From: Escherichia coli
GTDB taxonomy: Bacteria > Pseudomonadota > Gammaproteobacteria > Enterobacterales > Enterobacteriaceae
NCBI RefSeq assembly: GCF_003334255.1
Contig: NZ_QOWU01000061.1
DNA length: 27,896 nucleotides
Direction: 5' to 3' (one strand)
Under the pieces are notes generated by a model. That model was not told the origin of the DNA and ran no database searches. It saw only the letters and a program-made list of their open reading frames with translations. Of the stretch, positions 2,161 to 9,995 are shown piece after piece. The position numbers and the translations under genes were made by a program. Each line of letters starts with the position of its first letter. Positions within the stretch are counted from its first letter, which is position 1.

Positions 2161-3246
2161 ATGATGAAAACGATGCGTATTGCTGCGATCCCGGGAGACG
2201 GGATTGGCAAAGAAGTCCTTCCTGAAGGGATTCGCGTGTTACAGGCTGCCGCTGAGCGCTGGGGCTTCGCCTTGAGTTTTGAGCAAATGGAGTGGGCGAG
2301 CTGCGAGTATTACAGCCATCACGGTAAAATGATGCCGGACGACTGGCATGAGCAACTTAGCCGTTTCGACGCCATCTATTTTGGTGCCGTCGGCTGGCCG
2401 GATACCGTTCCGGACCATATTTCGTTGTGGGGTTCGCTGCTGAAATTTCGTCGTGAATTCGACCAGTACGTCAACCTGCGCCCGGTTCGTCTCTTTCCTG
2501 GCGTTCCCTGCCCGCTGGCGGGAAAACAGCCTGGCGACATCGATTTTTACGTGGTCAGGGAAAACACCGAAGGCGAATATTCCTCGCTCGGCGGTAGAGT
2601 GAATGAAGGTACAGAGCATGAAGTCGTCATTCAGGAATCGGTATTTACCCGCCGTGGTGTCGATCGCATTTTGCGTTATGCCTTCGAACTTGCGCAAAGC
2701 CGTCCACGTAAGACACTAACTTCTGCCACTAAATCGAACGGTTTAGCCATCAGCATGCCGTACTGGGATGAGCGAGTGGAAGCAATGGCCGAGAATTACC
2801 CGGAGATCCGCTGGGACAAGCAGCATATTGATATTCTCTGCGCGCGTTTTGTGATGCAGCCGGAACGATTCGATGTGGTGGTGGCGTCCAATTTGTTTGG
2901 CGATATCCTTTCCGATCTTGGCCCGGCCTGCACCGGCACCATTGGCATTGCCCCATCCGCCAACCTGAATCCGGAACGCACTTTCCCGTCGCTCTTCGAG
3001 CCTGTCCACGGTTCCGCGCCGGATATCTACGGGAAAAATATTGCTAACCCTATCGCCACGATTTGGGCCGGGGCAATGATGCTCGATTTTCTCGGCAATG
3101 GCGATGAGCGTTTCCAGCAAGCGCATAACGGTATTCTGGCAGCAATTGAAGAAGTGATTGCTCACGGGCCGAAAACACCTGATATGAAAGGCAATGCCAC
3201 CACGCCACAGGTTGCCGACGCGATTTGCAAAATTATTTTGCGTTAA
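2161..3246 (+). CDS. dmlA: D-malate dehydrogenase (decarboxylating), isocitrate/isopropylmalate dehydrogenase family (361 aa)
   Basis: ORF 361 aa MMKTMRIAAIPGDGIGKEV... with the typical IDH/IPMDH N-terminal GDGIG motif; matches DmlA (YeaU). Confidence 0.9.
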   Translation: MMKTMRIAAIPGDGIGKEVLPEGIRVLQAAAERWGFALSFEQMEWASCEYYSHHGKMMPDDWHEQLSRFDAIYFGAVGWPDTVPDHISLWGSLLKFRREFDQYVNLRPVRLFPGVPCPLAGKQPGDIDFYVVRENTEGEYSSLGGRVNEGTEHEVVIQESVFTRRGVDRILRYAFELAQSRPRKTLTSATKSNGLAISMPYWDERVEAMAENYPEIRWDKQHIDILCARFVMQPERFDVVVASNLFGDILSDLGPACTGTIGIAPSANLNPERTFPSLFEPVHGSAPDIYGKNIANPIATIWAGAMMLDFLGNGDERFQQAHNGILAAIEEVIAHGPKTPDMKGNATTPQVADAICKIILR

Positions 3247-3267
3247 GGTCAAACCAGTTTATTTGAA

Positions 3268-3292
3268 CCGCGTCACTGACGCGGTTTTTTTA
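3268..3292 (+). terminator. Rho-independent terminator after dmlA
   Basis: CCGCGTCACTGACGCGG hairpin followed by a run of seven T at 3285-3291, about 20 nt after the dmlA stop. Confidence 0.8.
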
Positions 3293-3436
3293 TTCGTTCT
3301 TTGCAGTAAATAACCTGCGTCATTTCACCTTTTATTGTTTCCGTTTCGTGTTTTATGGCTTTCCGTATTCTTAATTGTTTAATTTATGTAACATGCAAAT
3401 TTTGTTACGCGTACGTTAGGTTCCGCCGTACAGGTA

Positions 3437-4882
3437 TTGGTTTTGCTGGCAATGGGACTGGTGATTTATTTAGCCACCAGTAAATACGGCAATATTCGTC
3501 TTGGCGAAGGAAAACCGGAATACAGCACGCTCTCCTGGCTGTTTATGTTTATTTGTGCCGGTTTAGGTTCTTCTACGCTTTATTGGGGGGTTGCTGAATG
3601 GGCCTATTATTATCAAACACCTGGATTAAATATCGCACCGCGTTCACAACAGGCACTCGAATTTAGCGTTCCCTACTCTTTCTTCCACTGGGGCATCAGC
3701 GCCTGGGCAACTTATACGCTGGCCTCATTAATCATGGCTTATCACTTTCATGTGCGGAAAAACAAAGGTCTGAGCCTTTCCGGCATTATTGCTGCTATTA
3801 CCGGCGTTCGCCCGCAAGGCCCATGGGGAAAACTGGTCGATTTGATGTTCCTGATCGCCACTGTCGGCGCACTGACCATTTCCCTTGTTGTTACCGCAGC
3901 AACCTTTACCCGTGGGCTTTCCGCGCTGACCGGTTTACCCGATAACTTCACCGTGCAGGCATTTGTGATCCTGCTTTCCGGCGGCATTTTTTGCCTAAGC
4001 TCGTGGATTGGTATCAACAACGGTTTGCAACGTCTGAGCAAAATGGTTGGCTGGGGCGCGTTCCTGCTGCCATTACTGGTGCTGATTGTCGGCCCAACCG
4101 AATTTATTACCAACAGCATCATCAATGCCATCGGCCTGACCACGCAAAACTTCCTGCAAATGAGCTTATTCACCGATCCGCTTGGCGATGGTTCATTTAC
4201 CCGCAACTGGACCGTTTTCTACTGGCTGTGGTGGATCTCATACACCCCTGGCGTAGCAATGTTTGTCACCCGCGTTTCCCGCGGTCGTAAGATTAAAGAA
4301 GTTATCTGGGGACTGATCCTCGGCAGCACCGTCGGTTGCTGGTTCTTCTTTGGCGTAATGGAAAGCTATGCCATTCATCAGTTTATCAATGGCGTAATCA
4401 ACGTCCCACAGGTGCTGGAAACACTGGGCGGCGAAACAGCTGTACAGCAAGTTCTGATGTCGTTGCCAGCCGGTAAATTGTTCCTCGCCGCATACCTGGG
4501 CGTGATGATTATTTTCCTTGCCTCGCATATGGATGCAGTGGCCTACACCATGGCGGCGACCAGTACGCGTAATCTCCAGGAAGGTGACGATCCTGACCGT
4601 GGGCTGCGTCTTTTCTGGTGCGTGGTGATCACTCTGATCCCGCTTTCCATCTTGTTTACCGGTGCTTCGCTGGAAACGATGAAAACCACCGTCGTGCTCA
4701 CAGCCCTTCCCTTCCTCGTCATTTTACTGGTGAAAGTCGGCGGGTTTATTCGCTGGCTGAAACAGGATTACGCCGACATTCCGGCTCATCAAGTTGAACA
4801 TTATCTCCCGCAGACACCGGTTGAAGCCCTGGAAAAAACGCCAGTGCTCCCTGCGGGAACCGTATTCAAAGGCGACAACTGA
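3437..4882 (+). CDS. yeaV: BCCT-family (betaine/carnitine/choline) transporter, probable carnitine-related uptake (481 aa)
   Basis: ORF 481 aa; aligns by eye with CaiT/BetT from the end of TM2 onward ([23 protein letters not shown]; [24 protein letters not shown]). Longest ORF starts with TTG at 3437; first ATG at 3452. In-frame stops lie upstream. Confidence 0.85.
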
Positions 4883-4913: not shown

Positions 4914-6038
4914 ATGAGCAATCTGAGCCCTGACTTTGTACTACCCGAAAATTTTTGCGCTAACCCGCAAGAGGCGTGGACCATTCCTGCCCGTTTTTAT
5001 ACCGATCAGAACGCGTTTGAACACGAAAAAGAGAACGTCTTCGCCAAAAGCTGGATTTGCGTCGCTCACAGCAGCGAACTGGCGAATGCCAATGATTATG
5101 TGACGCGTGAGATCATTGGCGAAAGCATCGTGCTGGTACGCGGTCGTGATAAGGTTTTGCGCGCGTTCTATAACGTGTGTCCGCACCGTGGTCATCAGTT
5201 GTTGAGCGGTGAAGGAAAAGCAAAAAATGTGATTACCTGCCCGTATCACGCATGGGCATTCAAACTCGATGGCAACCTGGCCCATGCACGTAACTGCGAA
5301 AACGTCGCCAATTTCGATAGCGACAAAGCGCAACTGGTTCCGGTGCGTCTGGAAGAATATGCCGGATTCGTCTTCATCAACATGGACCCCAACGCCACCA
5401 GCGTAGAAGATCAATTACCCGGCCTGGGCGCGAAAGTGCTGGAAGCCTGCCCGGAAGTCCACGATCTGAAACTGGCGGCCCGCTTTACCACCCGCACGCC
5501 TGCCAACTGGAAGAACATTGTCGATAACTATCTCGAGTGCTATCACTGTGGTCCGGCGCATCCAGGTTTCTCCGACTCCGTACAGGTTGATCGTTACTGG
5601 CACACCATGCACGGTAACTGGACGCTGCAATACGGTTTCGCCAAACCGTCCGAACAGTCGTTTAAATTTGAAGAGGGTACGGATGCGGCATTCCACGGTT
5701 TCTGGCTGTGGCCGTGCACGATGCTGAACGTCACCCCGATCAAAGGGATGATGACGGTCATTTATGAATTCCCGGTGGATTCTGAAACTACCCTGCAAAA
5801 CTACGATATTTACTTCACCAATGAAGAGTTAACCGATGAGCAAAAATCGCTGATTGAGTGGTATCGCGATGTGTTCCGTCCGGAAGATTTACGTCTGGTT
5901 GAAAGCGTACAGAAAGGGCTGAAATCGCGTGGCTATCGTGGTCAGGGGCGCATCATGGCCGACAGTAGCGGTAGTGGCATTTCCGAACATGGTATCGCCC
6001 ATTTCCATAATCTGCTGGCGCAGGTGTTTAAGGACTAA
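4914..6038 (+). CDS. yeaW: Carnitine monooxygenase oxygenase subunit, Rieske [2Fe-2S] non-haem iron oxygenase (374 aa)
   Basis: In-frame ATG at 4914 preceded by AAAGG gives 374 aa MSNLSPDFVLPEN...; Rieske motif CPHRGH...CPYHAW present; the track ORF from 4794 is an upstream extension overlapping the yeaV 3' end. Confidence 0.9.
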   Translation: MSNLSPDFVLPENFCANPQEAWTIPARFYTDQNAFEHEKENVFAKSWICVAHSSELANANDYVTREIIGESIVLVRGRDKVLRAFYNVCPHRGHQLLSGEGKAKNVITCPYHAWAFKLDGNLAHARNCENVANFDSDKAQLVPVRLEEYAGFVFINMDPNATSVEDQLPGLGAKVLEACPEVHDLKLAARFTTRTPANWKNIVDNYLECYHCGPAHPGFSDSVQVDRYWHTMHGNWTLQYGFAKPSEQSFKFEEGTDAAFHGFWLWPCTMLNVTPIKGMMTVIYEFPVDSETTLQNYDIYFTNEELTDEQKSLIEWYRDVFRPEDLRLVESVQKGLKSRGYRGQGRIMADSSGSGISEHGIAHFHNLLAQVFKD

Positions 6039-6093
6039 TGACATCGGCGGCGGTATTTTCCGCCGCTGGGCTGATTTTTGATGGAGTACAGCA

Positions 6094-7059
6094 ATGTCAG
6101 ACTATCAAATGTTTGAAGTACAGGTGAGCCAGGTTGAACCCCTTACCGAACAGGTGAAACGCTTCACGCTGGTGGCAACCGATGGCAAACCATTACCTGC
6201 GTTTACCGGAGGAAGTCACGTCATTGTGCAGATGAGCGATGGTGATAACCAGTACAGCAATGCGTATTCACTACTGAGTTCGCCGCATGACACCTCTTGT
6301 TATCAGATTGCCGTTCGGCTGGAGGAAAACTCGCGCGGCGGTTCCCGCTTTTTGCATCAGCAGGTAAAAGTGGGCGATCGGTTAACGATTTCAACGCCTA
6401 ATAACCTGTTTGCGCTAATTCCCTCAGCCAGAAAGCATCTGTTTATCGCGGGCGGTATTGGTATCACCCCTTTCCTGTCGCACATGGCAGAGCTGCAACA
6501 CAGCGACGTCGACTGGCAGCTACATTACTGCTCGCGAAATCCAGAAAGTTGCGCATTTCGTGATGAGCTAGTCCAGCATCCGCAGGCTGAGAAAGTCCAT
6601 TTGCATCATTCATCAACCGGAACACGACTGGAATTAGCGCGATTATTGGCGGATATCGAACCTGGCACACACGTTTATACCTGTGGCCCCGAGGCGCTAA
6701 TTGAAGCGGTAAGAAGTGAAGCTGCGCGTCTGGACATCGCCGCCGATACGCTGCACTTTGAGCAATTTGCTATCGAAGACAAAACCGGCGATGCATTTAC
6801 CCTGGTGCTTGCCCGTTCCGGAAAAGAGTTTGTGGTGCCGGAAGAGATGACTATTTTGCAGGTTATTGAAAATAATAAAGCCGCGAAAGTGGAATGTTTA
6901 TGTCGTGAAGGGGTATGCGGAACCTGCGAAACAGCAATACTGGAAGGTGAAGCTGACCATCGGGATCAATATTTTAGCGATGAAGAGCGTGCCAGCCAGC
7001 AAAGTATGTTGATCTGTTGTTCGCGTGCGAAGGGTAAACGCCTGGTGTTGGATTTGTAG
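6094..7059 (+). CDS. yeaX: Carnitine monooxygenase reductase subunit, FNR-like flavin/NAD domain plus C-terminal plant-type 2Fe-2S ferredoxin (321 aa)
   Basis: ORF 321 aa; C-terminal CREGVCGTCE ferredoxin cysteine motif; located directly after yeaW. Confidence 0.9.
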   Translation: MSDYQMFEVQVSQVEPLTEQVKRFTLVATDGKPLPAFTGGSHVIVQMSDGDNQYSNAYSLLSSPHDTSCYQIAVRLEENSRGGSRFLHQQVKVGDRLTISTPNNLFALIPSARKHLFIAGGIGITPFLSHMAELQHSDVDWQLHYCSRNPESCAFRDELVQHPQAEKVHLHHSSTGTRLELARLLADIEPGTHVYTCGPEALIEAVRSEAARLDIAADTLHFEQFAIEDKTGDAFTLVLARSGKEFVVPEEMTILQVIENNKAAKVECLCREGVCGTCETAILEGEADHRDQYFSDEERASQQSMLICCSRAKGKRLVLDL

Positions 7060-8263: not shown

Positions 8264-8290
8264 CAAAAAAAACGCCGGATTAACCGGCGT
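8264..8290 (-). terminator. Hairpin plus U8 tract: fadD terminator and rnd 5'-leader translation-enhancing stem-loop
   Basis: On the minus strand ACGCCGGUUAAUCCGGCGU is followed by eight U; it lies between the fadD stop (8310) and the rnd start (8240). Confidence 0.75.
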
Positions 8291-8309
8291 CTGACGACTG
8301 ACTTAACGC

Positions 8310-9995
8310 TCAGGCTTTATTGTCCACTTTGCCGCGCGCTTCGTCACGTAATTCTCGTCGCAAAATTTTTCCGACGTTAGATTTCGGTAACTCATCACGA
8401 AACTCCACCAGCTTCGGTACTTTGTATCCCGTGAGCTGACGGCGGCAAAAAGTCACCAGTGACTCTTCGGTAAGCGATGGATCTTTTTTCACTACGAAGA
8501 TTTTCACCGCTTCACCACTGGAGCCGGAAGGTACGCCAACAGCCGCGACTTCCTGTACGCCAGGATGCTGCATGACGACATCTTCAATCTCGTTGGGATA
8601 GACGTTAAAACCGGAAACCAGAATCATGTCTTTTTTACGATCGACAATGCGCAGGAATCCTTCTTCATCCATTACCGCGATGTCGCCGGTGTGTAACCAG
8701 CCATTTTTGATGATTTCATCGGTAGCATCGGGACGCTGCCAGTAACCCAGCATCACCTGCGGTCCTTTGACACAAAGCTCACCCGGTTGACCTGGTGGTA
8801 CTTCATTATCATCATCATCCACCAGTTTGGCTTCCGTCGACGGCACCGGCAAACCGATGCTACCACTATGATAATCAATATCATATGGGTTAACGCTGAC
8901 CAGCGGCGCACACTCGGTAAGGCCATAGCCTTCCAGCAGATACTGTCCGGTCAGTTTCACCCAACGCTCTGCCACCACTTGCTGCACTGGCATCCCACCG
9001 CCTGCGGAAAGATGCAGACTGGAGAAATCCAGCTGCTGGAACTCTTTATTGTTCAGCAACGCATTGAACAAGGTGTTAACGCCCGTGATAGCGGTAAACG
9101 GATATTTCGCTAACTCTTTTACCAACCCTGGAATATCGCGCGGGTTAGTGATAAGCAGGTTCTGCCCACCCAGTTCGATAAACAGCAGGCAGTTAATGGT
9201 CAGGGCAAAAATGTGATACAGCGGCAGCGCCGTCACCACCAGCTCTTTGCCCGGATGCAACAGCGGACCATAGGTCGCGTTAACCTGTTCCAGGTTCGCC
9301 AGCATATTGCGGTGAGTCAGCATCGCGCCTTTCGCCACACCAGTGGTGCCGCCGGTGTATTGCAGAAAAGCTAAATCTTCCGGCACCAGTTCGGGTTTGA
9401 CGTACTGCATCCGGTAGCCGTTATGCAGTGCGCTACGAAATGAAATGGCATCTGGCAGATGGTATTTCGGCACCAAACGCTTGATGTATTTAACAACGAA
9501 ATTGACTACCGTGCCTTTTGCCGTAGATAGCTGATCGCCCATACGGGTCAGAATTACGTGCTGAACGGCGGTTTTATCAACCACTTTTTCCAGTGTGTGA
9601 GCAAAGTTAGACACGATAACAATCGCCGATGCGCCGCTATCGTTAAGCTGATGCTCAAGCTCACGCGGGGTATACAACGGGTTAACGTTTACGACGATCA
9701 TCCCGGCACGCAAAATGCCAAACAGCGCCACCGGATATTGCAATAAATTAGGCATCATCAACGCAACGCGATCGCCTTTCTTCAGCCCCAACCCTTGTTG
9801 CAAATAAGCGGCAAACGCGCGACTGCGTTCTTCCAGCTTGCGGAAGGTCATTACCTCCCCCATATTCACAAACGCAGGTTGATCGGCGTAGCGCGCGACC
9901 GACTGCTCAAACATATCTACCAGAGATTGATAACGGTCAGGGTTGATCTCCGTCGGAACGTCCGCGGGATAACGGTTAAGCCAAACCTTCTTCAA
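8310..9995 (-). CDS. fadD: Long-chain-fatty-acid--CoA ligase (acyl-CoA synthetase), 561 aa
   Basis: Adenylate-forming enzyme motifs ([17 protein letters not shown]-loop-like; GYGLTE); in-frame TTG at 9995 preceded by a GAGGTGA Shine-Dalgarno gives the 561-aa product [10 protein letters not shown]...; the track ORF 8310..10061 is an upstream over-extension. Confidence 0.85.

Follow-up and report, generated by a model that had tools for sequence, protein, structure and literature searches.

A 225-bp deletion probably accounts for the short yeaV gene of Escherichia coli K-12 and B strains, a likely 5'-truncated pseudogene

The Escherichia coli CntA/CntB (YeaW/YeaX) pathway, which converts dietary carnitine to trimethylamine (TMA), a metabolite tied to cardiovascular risk, presumably has YeaV as its dedicated importer. 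In the 27,896-nucleotide stretch of E. coli DNA analyzed here (contig NZ_QOWU01000061.1 of assembly GCF_003334255.1, called the window below), which contains the locus dmlR-dmlA-yeaV-yeaW-yeaX, the longest yeaV open reading frame (ORF) in the ORF list runs from 3437 to 4882 on the plus strand, begins with TTG, and encodes just 481 amino acids. Is this protein a naturally shortened transporter, or is the gene the decayed version of a longer one? Both possibilities were raised in an initial annotation made from the letters alone, and its statements about the ORF hold: the start is TTG 3437, the first in-frame ATG is at 3452–3454, in-frame TAA codons lie upstream at 3380–3382 and 3389–3391, and the 190 bp from the dmlA stop (3246) to 3437 are AT-rich (38% GC vs 51% for the whole window). 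The MG1655 RefSeq gene b1801 starts at the same TTG. Between 75 and 8249 the window and MG1655 show two base differences in total, and their yeaV genes are identical. The evidence below makes it very probable that yeaV in the window is the K-12/B-type allele and a 5'-truncated pseudogene that arose by one 225-bp deletion.

To define what separates short and long alleles, we aligned the window to the locus of strain ECCNB12-2 (L001), where yeaV is a 1611-bp coding sequence (CDS) for a protein of 536 residues (WP_000987528.1). The alignment contained one gap-free 225-bp difference with identical flanks. The segment missing from the window corresponds to L001 2751–2975, and the junction lies between window positions 3399 and 3400, with a one-base ambiguity from a common T. 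A single 225-bp deletion thus parts the window allele from intact yeaV. Lost with it are the 97 bp directly 5' of the ATG, the AGGAG Shine-Dalgarno (SD) site, the ATG itself, codons 1–42, and two bases of codon 43. Codon 44 begins at position 3401, and the yeaV remnant (3401–4882, plus strand) consists of codons 44–536 and the stop, which include the LeuT-fold core formed by transmembrane helices TM3–TM12; in short-form genomes, the NCBI annotation pipeline PGAP places a partial pseudogene exactly there. The TTG at 3437–3439 is the internal codon Leu56 of the intact gene, which lies inside TM2, and the ATG at 3452–3454 is the internal codon Met61. By this alignment, the annotated 481-aa YeaV is the longest ORF left after the deletion, opening at the Leu56 TTG. 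Intact 536-aa E. coli YeaV (WP_000987525.1 or WP_000987528.1, as in SE11 and O157:H7) occupies the same place between dmlA and yeaW, and residues 44–536 of the window allele are identical to, or one residue off, those of five of the seven sampled intact E. coli alleles, whereas the window has none of the first 43 codons whole.

The deletion looks like a product of illegitimate recombination, an origin to which we attribute it because no repeat flanks the missing segment. Repeat-mediated deletion was rejected, as the breakpoints overlap by 1 nt (the common T) alone. Two TTTGTTA heptamers near the breakpoints are 219 bp apart and would make another junction, and the repeated TGCAAATAAT element (44-bp spacing) does not flank the deletion. 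No N-terminal coding remnants were found upstream of 3400: strains with intact yeaV have exactly this DNA as their intergenic sequence. The initial annotation had pointed to two in-frame stops, at 3380 and 3389. They are present but are not marks of decay; they belong to native dmlA–yeaV intergenic DNA that now stands beside codon 44. What is left here of the regulatory region that precedes intact yeaV, its distal half (3295–3399, plus strand), is identical to L001 2644–2750, is AT-rich (31% GC), was never coding, and holds both TAA codons as well as a conserved AATTGTTTAAT block at 3373–3383 among blocks that Klebsiella shares and Serratia shares in part. For 250 bp on each side of the deletion site, L001 and the window do not differ, but farther downstream in yeaV there are 29 synonymous and 1 nonsynonymous codon differences, a pattern that indicates recombination breakpoints within the gene.

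Comparisons with the protein family located the same loss. In a phmmer search of PDB chains, residue 8 of the 481-aa YeaV aligned with residue 61 of DddT, and residues 6–10 aligned with residues 63–67 of CaiT. DddT (PDB 21fh and related entries; E = 4e-97) and CaiT, a carnitine/gamma-butyrobetaine antiporter (PDB 2WSX, 3HFX; E = 7e-67), have the same BCCT/LeuT fold and align with the whole remnant, but each has ~55–60 extra N-terminal residues (TM1 and most of TM2) with no counterpart in the window ORF. The Pfam BCCT profile PF02028 assigns the ORF to the family (E = 4.7e-115). Over the 485 positions of this profile, however, the ORF covers 46–485 compared to 3–485 for the long form, and with positions 1–45 absent and the ORF beginning at residue 56 the 12-helix BCCT domain is not complete. 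The NCBIfam equivalog NF007412 (PRK09950) scored 968.8 bits for the ORF, above its curated cutoff of 647, with coverage of positions 56–536 of 536 compared to 1–536 for the long allele, and thus the match was not end-to-end.

In an AlphaFold model of the full-length allele (mean pLDDT 75, pTM 0.78), TM1 spans residues 10–29, a long TM2 spans 31–69, and TM3 spans 86–115. According to this model, the deletion takes TM1 and the first third of TM2, and the annotated ORF retains just the last 14 residues of TM2, so that about two thirds of this helix are gone from a product starting at Leu56 or Met61. The proposal that TM1 is missing was therefore right about the absent N-terminus, on which phmmer, Pfam, and NF007412 agree, and fell short in extent, as most of TM2 is predicted to be missing too. 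In the structure of BetT, TM3–7 and TM8–12 form inverted repeats, and TM2 takes part in trimer contacts at the periplasmic face (PMC11323884).

With the 536-aa protein as query, we recovered orthologues of 532–548 residues at 95–100% query coverage from Klebsiella, Citrobacter/Salmonella, [Enterobacter] lignolyticus, Leclercia, Shimwellia, Serratia, Yersinia, Xenorhabdus, Pseudomonas, Aeromonas, Cupriavidus, Achromobacter, and Helicobacter. All of the aligned orthologues (at least 12 genera) hold the N-terminal ~55 residues that are absent from the window ORF. The alignment that the initial annotation had suggested as a check thus found the N-terminal helix elsewhere, and did not find a common start with the window ORF. 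Because orthologues across genera retain the N-terminus, the long form is, on this comparison, ancestral. The gene order LysR / Iso_dh (dmlA-like) / BCCT / Rieske / Aldedh / reductase was the same in the four loci checked (Klebsiella, Serratia, Citrobacter/Salmonella, and E. lignolyticus). The BCCT transporter of the Acinetobacter baumannii cnt cluster, Aci01347, is likewise encoded beside a LysR regulator, D-malate dehydrogenase, and cntA/cntB, and is 56% identical to the E. coli protein (Piskol et al., 2024; PMC11353897). Aci01347 has been shown to import carnitine and is needed for growth on carnitine (PMC6562126); it has 551 residues and 12 predicted helices, whereas the window gene is truncated.

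How widespread is the deletion? We searched 5426 complete E. coli genomes by megablast with window positions 3150–3650 and found the locus in 4375 of them, many of the matches spanning 726 bp instead of 501. The 225-bp segment was present in 2930 genomes, or about two thirds of those that bear the locus, and full-length homologous alleles of the truncated gene thus exist both within the species and in the outgroup orthologues. A 40-mer across the junction occurred in 1438 genomes (a count inflated by laboratory derivatives), once in each and always on the chromosome, and 1426 of these copies were identical. Carriers of the deletion include MG1655, BL21(DE3), ATCC 8739, J53, and UMNF18; K-12, B, and ATCC 8739 are, we assume, all of phylogroup A. 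Intact yeaV was present in SE11 and in O157:H7, O104:H4, O111, O121:H19, and O15:H12 strains. Over the remnant, short alleles were 99.5–100% identical to the window and long alleles 95.9–99.9% identical, and between the K-12 remnant and the closest intact allele there was a single synonymous difference over 1482 nt. These identities fit a single, fairly recent deletion event.

Some complete genomes (~1050 of the 5426) had no yeaVWX at all. Among them, in strain HH97 (L008, 4217–6194), dmlR is split and frameshifted and dmlA is frameshifted, both being pseudogenes, and the remnant adjoins rnd; the whole dml-yea locus has thus decayed independently in this lineage. Other genomes carried lesions of their own at the locus. 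H96 (NZ_CP180600.1) has an IS1X2 insertion inside short-form yeaV, an independent lesion. Another independent lesion, in strain 14EC047 (L026, 1837–3574), is an IS421-associated deletion from yeaR into mid-yeaV that removed leuE, dmlR, dmlA, and the 5' 60% of yeaV; in BL21(DE3) (L012 43967–45675), yeaR is split by an IS4-like IS421 element of the same family that borders this deletion. In strain HS-02 (L025 3050–3170), ATA stands in place of the yeaV ATG, and low-complexity sequence rich in A and T takes the place of ~100 bp; this garbled region may be a separate decay event or an assembly error and was not counted as a second independent N-terminal lesion.

To compare constraint on the two forms, we counted codon differences using the long allele L019 as the reference. 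Six intact alleles differed from L019 by 17–51 synonymous and 0–7 nonsynonymous changes, and three of them (17, 20, and 31 synonymous changes) had no nonsynonymous change. Four sampled strains and SE11 encode an identical protein (WP_000987525.1). By these counts, intact yeaV is under strong purifying selection. In six sampled short alleles that were not identical to the window, every synonymous difference was shared with long alleles, which marks these differences as shared polymorphisms. The changes private to short alleles were three in number and all nonsynonymous (G183A, S204F, and T301A), and they fall at residues that are invariant in 20 orthologues. Private changes (0 synonymous, 3 nonsynonymous) differed from those of intact alleles (191 synonymous, 11 nonsynonymous) with a Fisher p value of 0.002, where n is 3 and the intact sum is taken over non-independent comparisons with L019. 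At n = 3, this difference is no more than a hint of relaxed constraint on the remnant.

We also asked whether the remnant retains signals for its own expression. At the native ATG, the AGGAG site pairs with the anti-SD sequence at −7.4 kcal/mol with a spacing of 6–9 nt. The candidate starts in the remnant (3437, 3443, 3452, and 3461) gave −3.3 to −3.9 kcal/mol with poor spacing, for example −3.8 kcal/mol with zero spacing for TTG 3437 and −3.3 kcal/mol with 15-nt spacing for ATG 3452, compared to a background at random positions of −2.2 ± 2.3 kcal/mol. By alignment and by these pairing energies, both the native start codon and the ribosome-binding site have been lost, as expected of a pseudogene. 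A scan for sigma-70-like promoters found none above the tool threshold in window 3100–3700, and the intact upstream region of L001 likewise gave none at this threshold. The 97 deleted bases hold blocks that are conserved between E. coli and Klebsiella and partly in Serratia, namely AATTTGTTAAT, an TGCAAATAAT / ATAA element, two small hairpin-like segments, and the SD site. Judged from this conservation with Klebsiella and Serratia alone, the deleted part probably held the core promoter and leader of the native gene, and the 97 bp are likely to include the −10 region.

The intact upstream region has further internal structure. Direct repeats AATTGTTTAAT / AATTTGTTAAT lie ~32 bp apart in L001 2724–2766, the exact 10-mer TGCAAATAAT occurs twice, 44 bp apart, in L001 2745–2797, and the two small hairpin-like segments lie just 5' of the SD site; several of the upstream blocks are kept in Klebsiella. 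The deletion cuts between the upstream repeat copies, and the retained part is window 3373–3399. These repeats may be operator or promoter elements. An Rfam search of the intergenic region and leader found no credible match to an RNA element; the sole match, anti-hemB, reached 19.6 bits where 49.5 is the gathering score, overlies the dmlA terminator, and was rejected.

These results suggest the following course of events. The ancestral gene encoded a 536-aa, 12-helix BCCT transporter as the first member of a yeaV-yeaW-yeaX unit (transporter, CntA, CntB) for conversion of carnitine to trimethylamine. The deletion joined codons 44–536 to what had been the distal half of the intergenic DNA, leaving a remnant that is presumably transcribed and translated poorly or not at all. 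Any product of the remnant would be expected to mis-assemble, as it would have neither TM1 nor the periplasmic half of TM2, which makes the trimer contacts in BetT. Along with the deletion, yeaW and yeaX would have lost their normal promoter, and yeaWX are thus probably promoterless in laboratory reference strains.

The annotation record is divided. In all eight short-form RefSeq genomes that we inspected, among them a strain identical to the window, PGAP labels yeaV as 'incomplete; partial in the middle of a contig; missing N-terminus', the label given to strain-specific 5'-truncated pseudogenes. By contrast, the curated MG1655 record has an ordinary 481-aa CDS, 'putative transporter YeaV', and TCDB lists YeaV as 2.A.15.2.3. 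The literature that we searched contained no mention of the truncation. This is an ordinary case of lineage-specific gene inactivation, already known at the database level, and of the two possibilities raised at the outset the decayed version of a longer gene is borne out by the 536-aa allele, the full-length orthologues, and the pseudogene label. A naturally shortened transporter is not supported, given that label and the loss of the SD site and promoter-proximal DNA together with the N-terminus. The doubt raised in the initial annotation, over whether the carnitine pathway still has a functional importer of its own here, thus appears warranted.

Several observations nevertheless weigh against a pseudogene and in favor of a functional 481-aa (or 476-aa) product, which would be expressed from a cryptic promoter or by dmlA read-through, be anchored N-out by half of TM2, and transport quaternary amines or other metabolites through TM3–TM12. 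The ten-helix LeuT-fold core is intact in the remnant, and the core model TIGR00842 scores the short and long forms alike (548 bits for the 481-aa ORF, cutoff 407). TM1 and TM2 lie outside the inverted TM3–7 / TM8–12 repeats (PMC11323884). The ORF is unbroken in seven of seven short alleles examined, although this says little because the deletion looks recent, with its 1 synonymous change in 1482 nt. Genomic SELEX placed yeaV among the predicted CRP targets in K-12 (PMC3105977). The main evidence for residual YeaV function is a metabolomics screen in which a Keio yeaV knockout and an ASKA clone showed shifts in the depletion of pantothenate and kynurenate and, on overexpression, depletion of carnitine (PMC10971958). 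That screen was untargeted, with three technical replicates, tentative identifications, and no direct transport assay (PMC10971958). The ASKA plasmid brings its own promoter, ribosome-binding site, and start codon, and the unvalidated hits pantothenate and kynurenate are not BCCT-type substrates. Moreover, neither an SD site nor a promoter-like site was found for the remnant, a strong dmlA terminator lies upstream, all orthologues hold both TM1 and TM2, and the private substitutions of short alleles fall at invariant residues. Physiological data from laboratory strains point the same way. Control cells of the K-12 derivative MKH13 accumulated no carnitine (Breisch et al., 2018; PMC6562126). 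None of the strains K12, B, and BL21 grew on carnitine, carnitine monooxygenase activity was undetectable in BL21 extract, and cntA was not substantially transcribed under any condition found in GEO (Piskol et al., 2024; PMC11353897). We did not take as native activity a table that lists K12, DH10b, and BL21 as carnitine-positive (PMC6200775), in which the K12 entry cites Rath 2017, where K12 DNA served as a qPCR standard only. Taken together, these considerations make a working short transporter improbable.

Two other explanations leave the remnant's activity aside and question the direction or the reality of the change. If the short form were ancestral in E. coli, the 225 bp would have been gained later by recombination from another species and would have extended the gene; a single clean indel is unreadable as to direction from that alignment alone, and recombination is evident nearby, as L001 combines window-like flanks with a diverged downstream coding sequence. 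However, the protein segment encoded in the 225 bp has homologues at the N-termini of orthologues in at least 12 genera, the 225 bp also carry a conserved SD site and leader, family models expect the N-terminal residues, and the long form occurs on diverse haplotypes (95.9–99.9% identical to the window) whereas short alleles make up a tight group (99.5–100%). We regard a later gain as very improbable. Least credible of all is a sequencing or assembly artefact, or a mis-annotated reference, that hides a gene of full length. The unusual TTG start and odd length are the sole basis for this idea, and the same junction recurs in the 1438 independently assembled complete genomes, including MG1655 and BL21(DE3), with 1426 of them identical over the 40-mer. 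A 5'-truncated pseudogene therefore remains our strongly favored reading of the window allele.

The genes around yeaV show how the cluster as a whole has fared. Upstream on the plus strand lies dmlA (2161–3246), for D-malate dehydrogenase, assigned from the ORF list and annotation. It belongs to the ancestral cluster of carnitine-to-pyruvate genes, with an Iso_dh gene in the same place in Klebsiella, Serratia, Citrobacter, and E. lignolyticus. A terminator scan found that dmlA is followed by an intrinsic terminator at 3265–3294 (plus strand), in which a GC-rich stem of 10 bp precedes a run of T; the element is identical in the long-form locus L001. Downstream in the same direction are yeaW (4914–6038, plus strand), for the oxygenase subunit of a cntA-type carnitine monooxygenase (annotation transferred by coordinate offset), and yeaX (6094–7059, plus strand), for the cntB-type reductase subunit (ORF list and annotation). 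In Klebsiella, Serratia, Citrobacter/Salmonella, and E. lignolyticus, a gene for a 482–483-aa aldehyde dehydrogenase, probably a malic semialdehyde dehydrogenase, lies between those for the Rieske oxygenase and the reductase (L004 7788–9236, L006 7809–9257, L009 7787–9238, and L011 7805–9253), whereas in E. coli the yeaW–yeaX spacer is 55 bp (window 6039–6093) and does not contain this gene. Its absence means that the E. coli cluster was already incomplete at the species level. Unlike the A. baumannii cnt cluster, that of E. coli has neither the hydrolase nor the malic semialdehyde dehydrogenase gene (Piskol et al., 2024; PMC11353897).

Some features of the window lie outside yeaV. The two base differences from MG1655 are at 1715 (dmlR) and 5837 (yeaW), and bases 3–74 fall off the shared alignment offset, so the window is not strictly MG1655. 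Rfam matches above the gathering score were the sroD sRNA adjoining rnd (8266–8351, minus strand; 115 bits) and the cspA thermoregulator model, matched over its full length at the window's right end (27400–27850, minus strand; 130 bits).

What does the deletion mean for carnitine metabolism in E. coli? The 225-bp indel could act as a natural on/off switch for aerobic conversion of carnitine to trimethylamine, a proposal that we put forward tentatively and consider possible rather than probable. If it were true, intact strains (about two thirds of those that bear the locus, among them O157:H7 and SE11, a gut commensal) would take up carnitine and have yeaVWX switched on, whereas the loss of the importer's N-terminus and of the operon's promoter-proximal region would silence K-12, B, and their relatives. 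Such a switch would explain the negative results with laboratory strains and would make it simple to tell, by a genetic marker at the strain level, which gut E. coli have the potential to form TMA. The variant in which the truncated core still transports without TM1 and TM2 is less likely than a switch.

Work on this locus in E. coli leans on K-12 and B resources, namely MG1655, BW25113/Keio, ASKA, DH10B, BL21, and MKH13. MG1655 and BL21(DE3) carry the truncated allele here, and we assume that other K-12 and B derivatives do likewise. The existence of an intact 536-aa gene bears on which clone should be chosen for transport assays, on how negative growth and expression results in laboratory strains are read, and on how metagenomic cntA counts are translated into real TMA-forming capacity. 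The practical warning is that laboratory reference strains have a truncated importer gene, whereas most natural E. coli that bear the locus have the intact gene of 536 codons.

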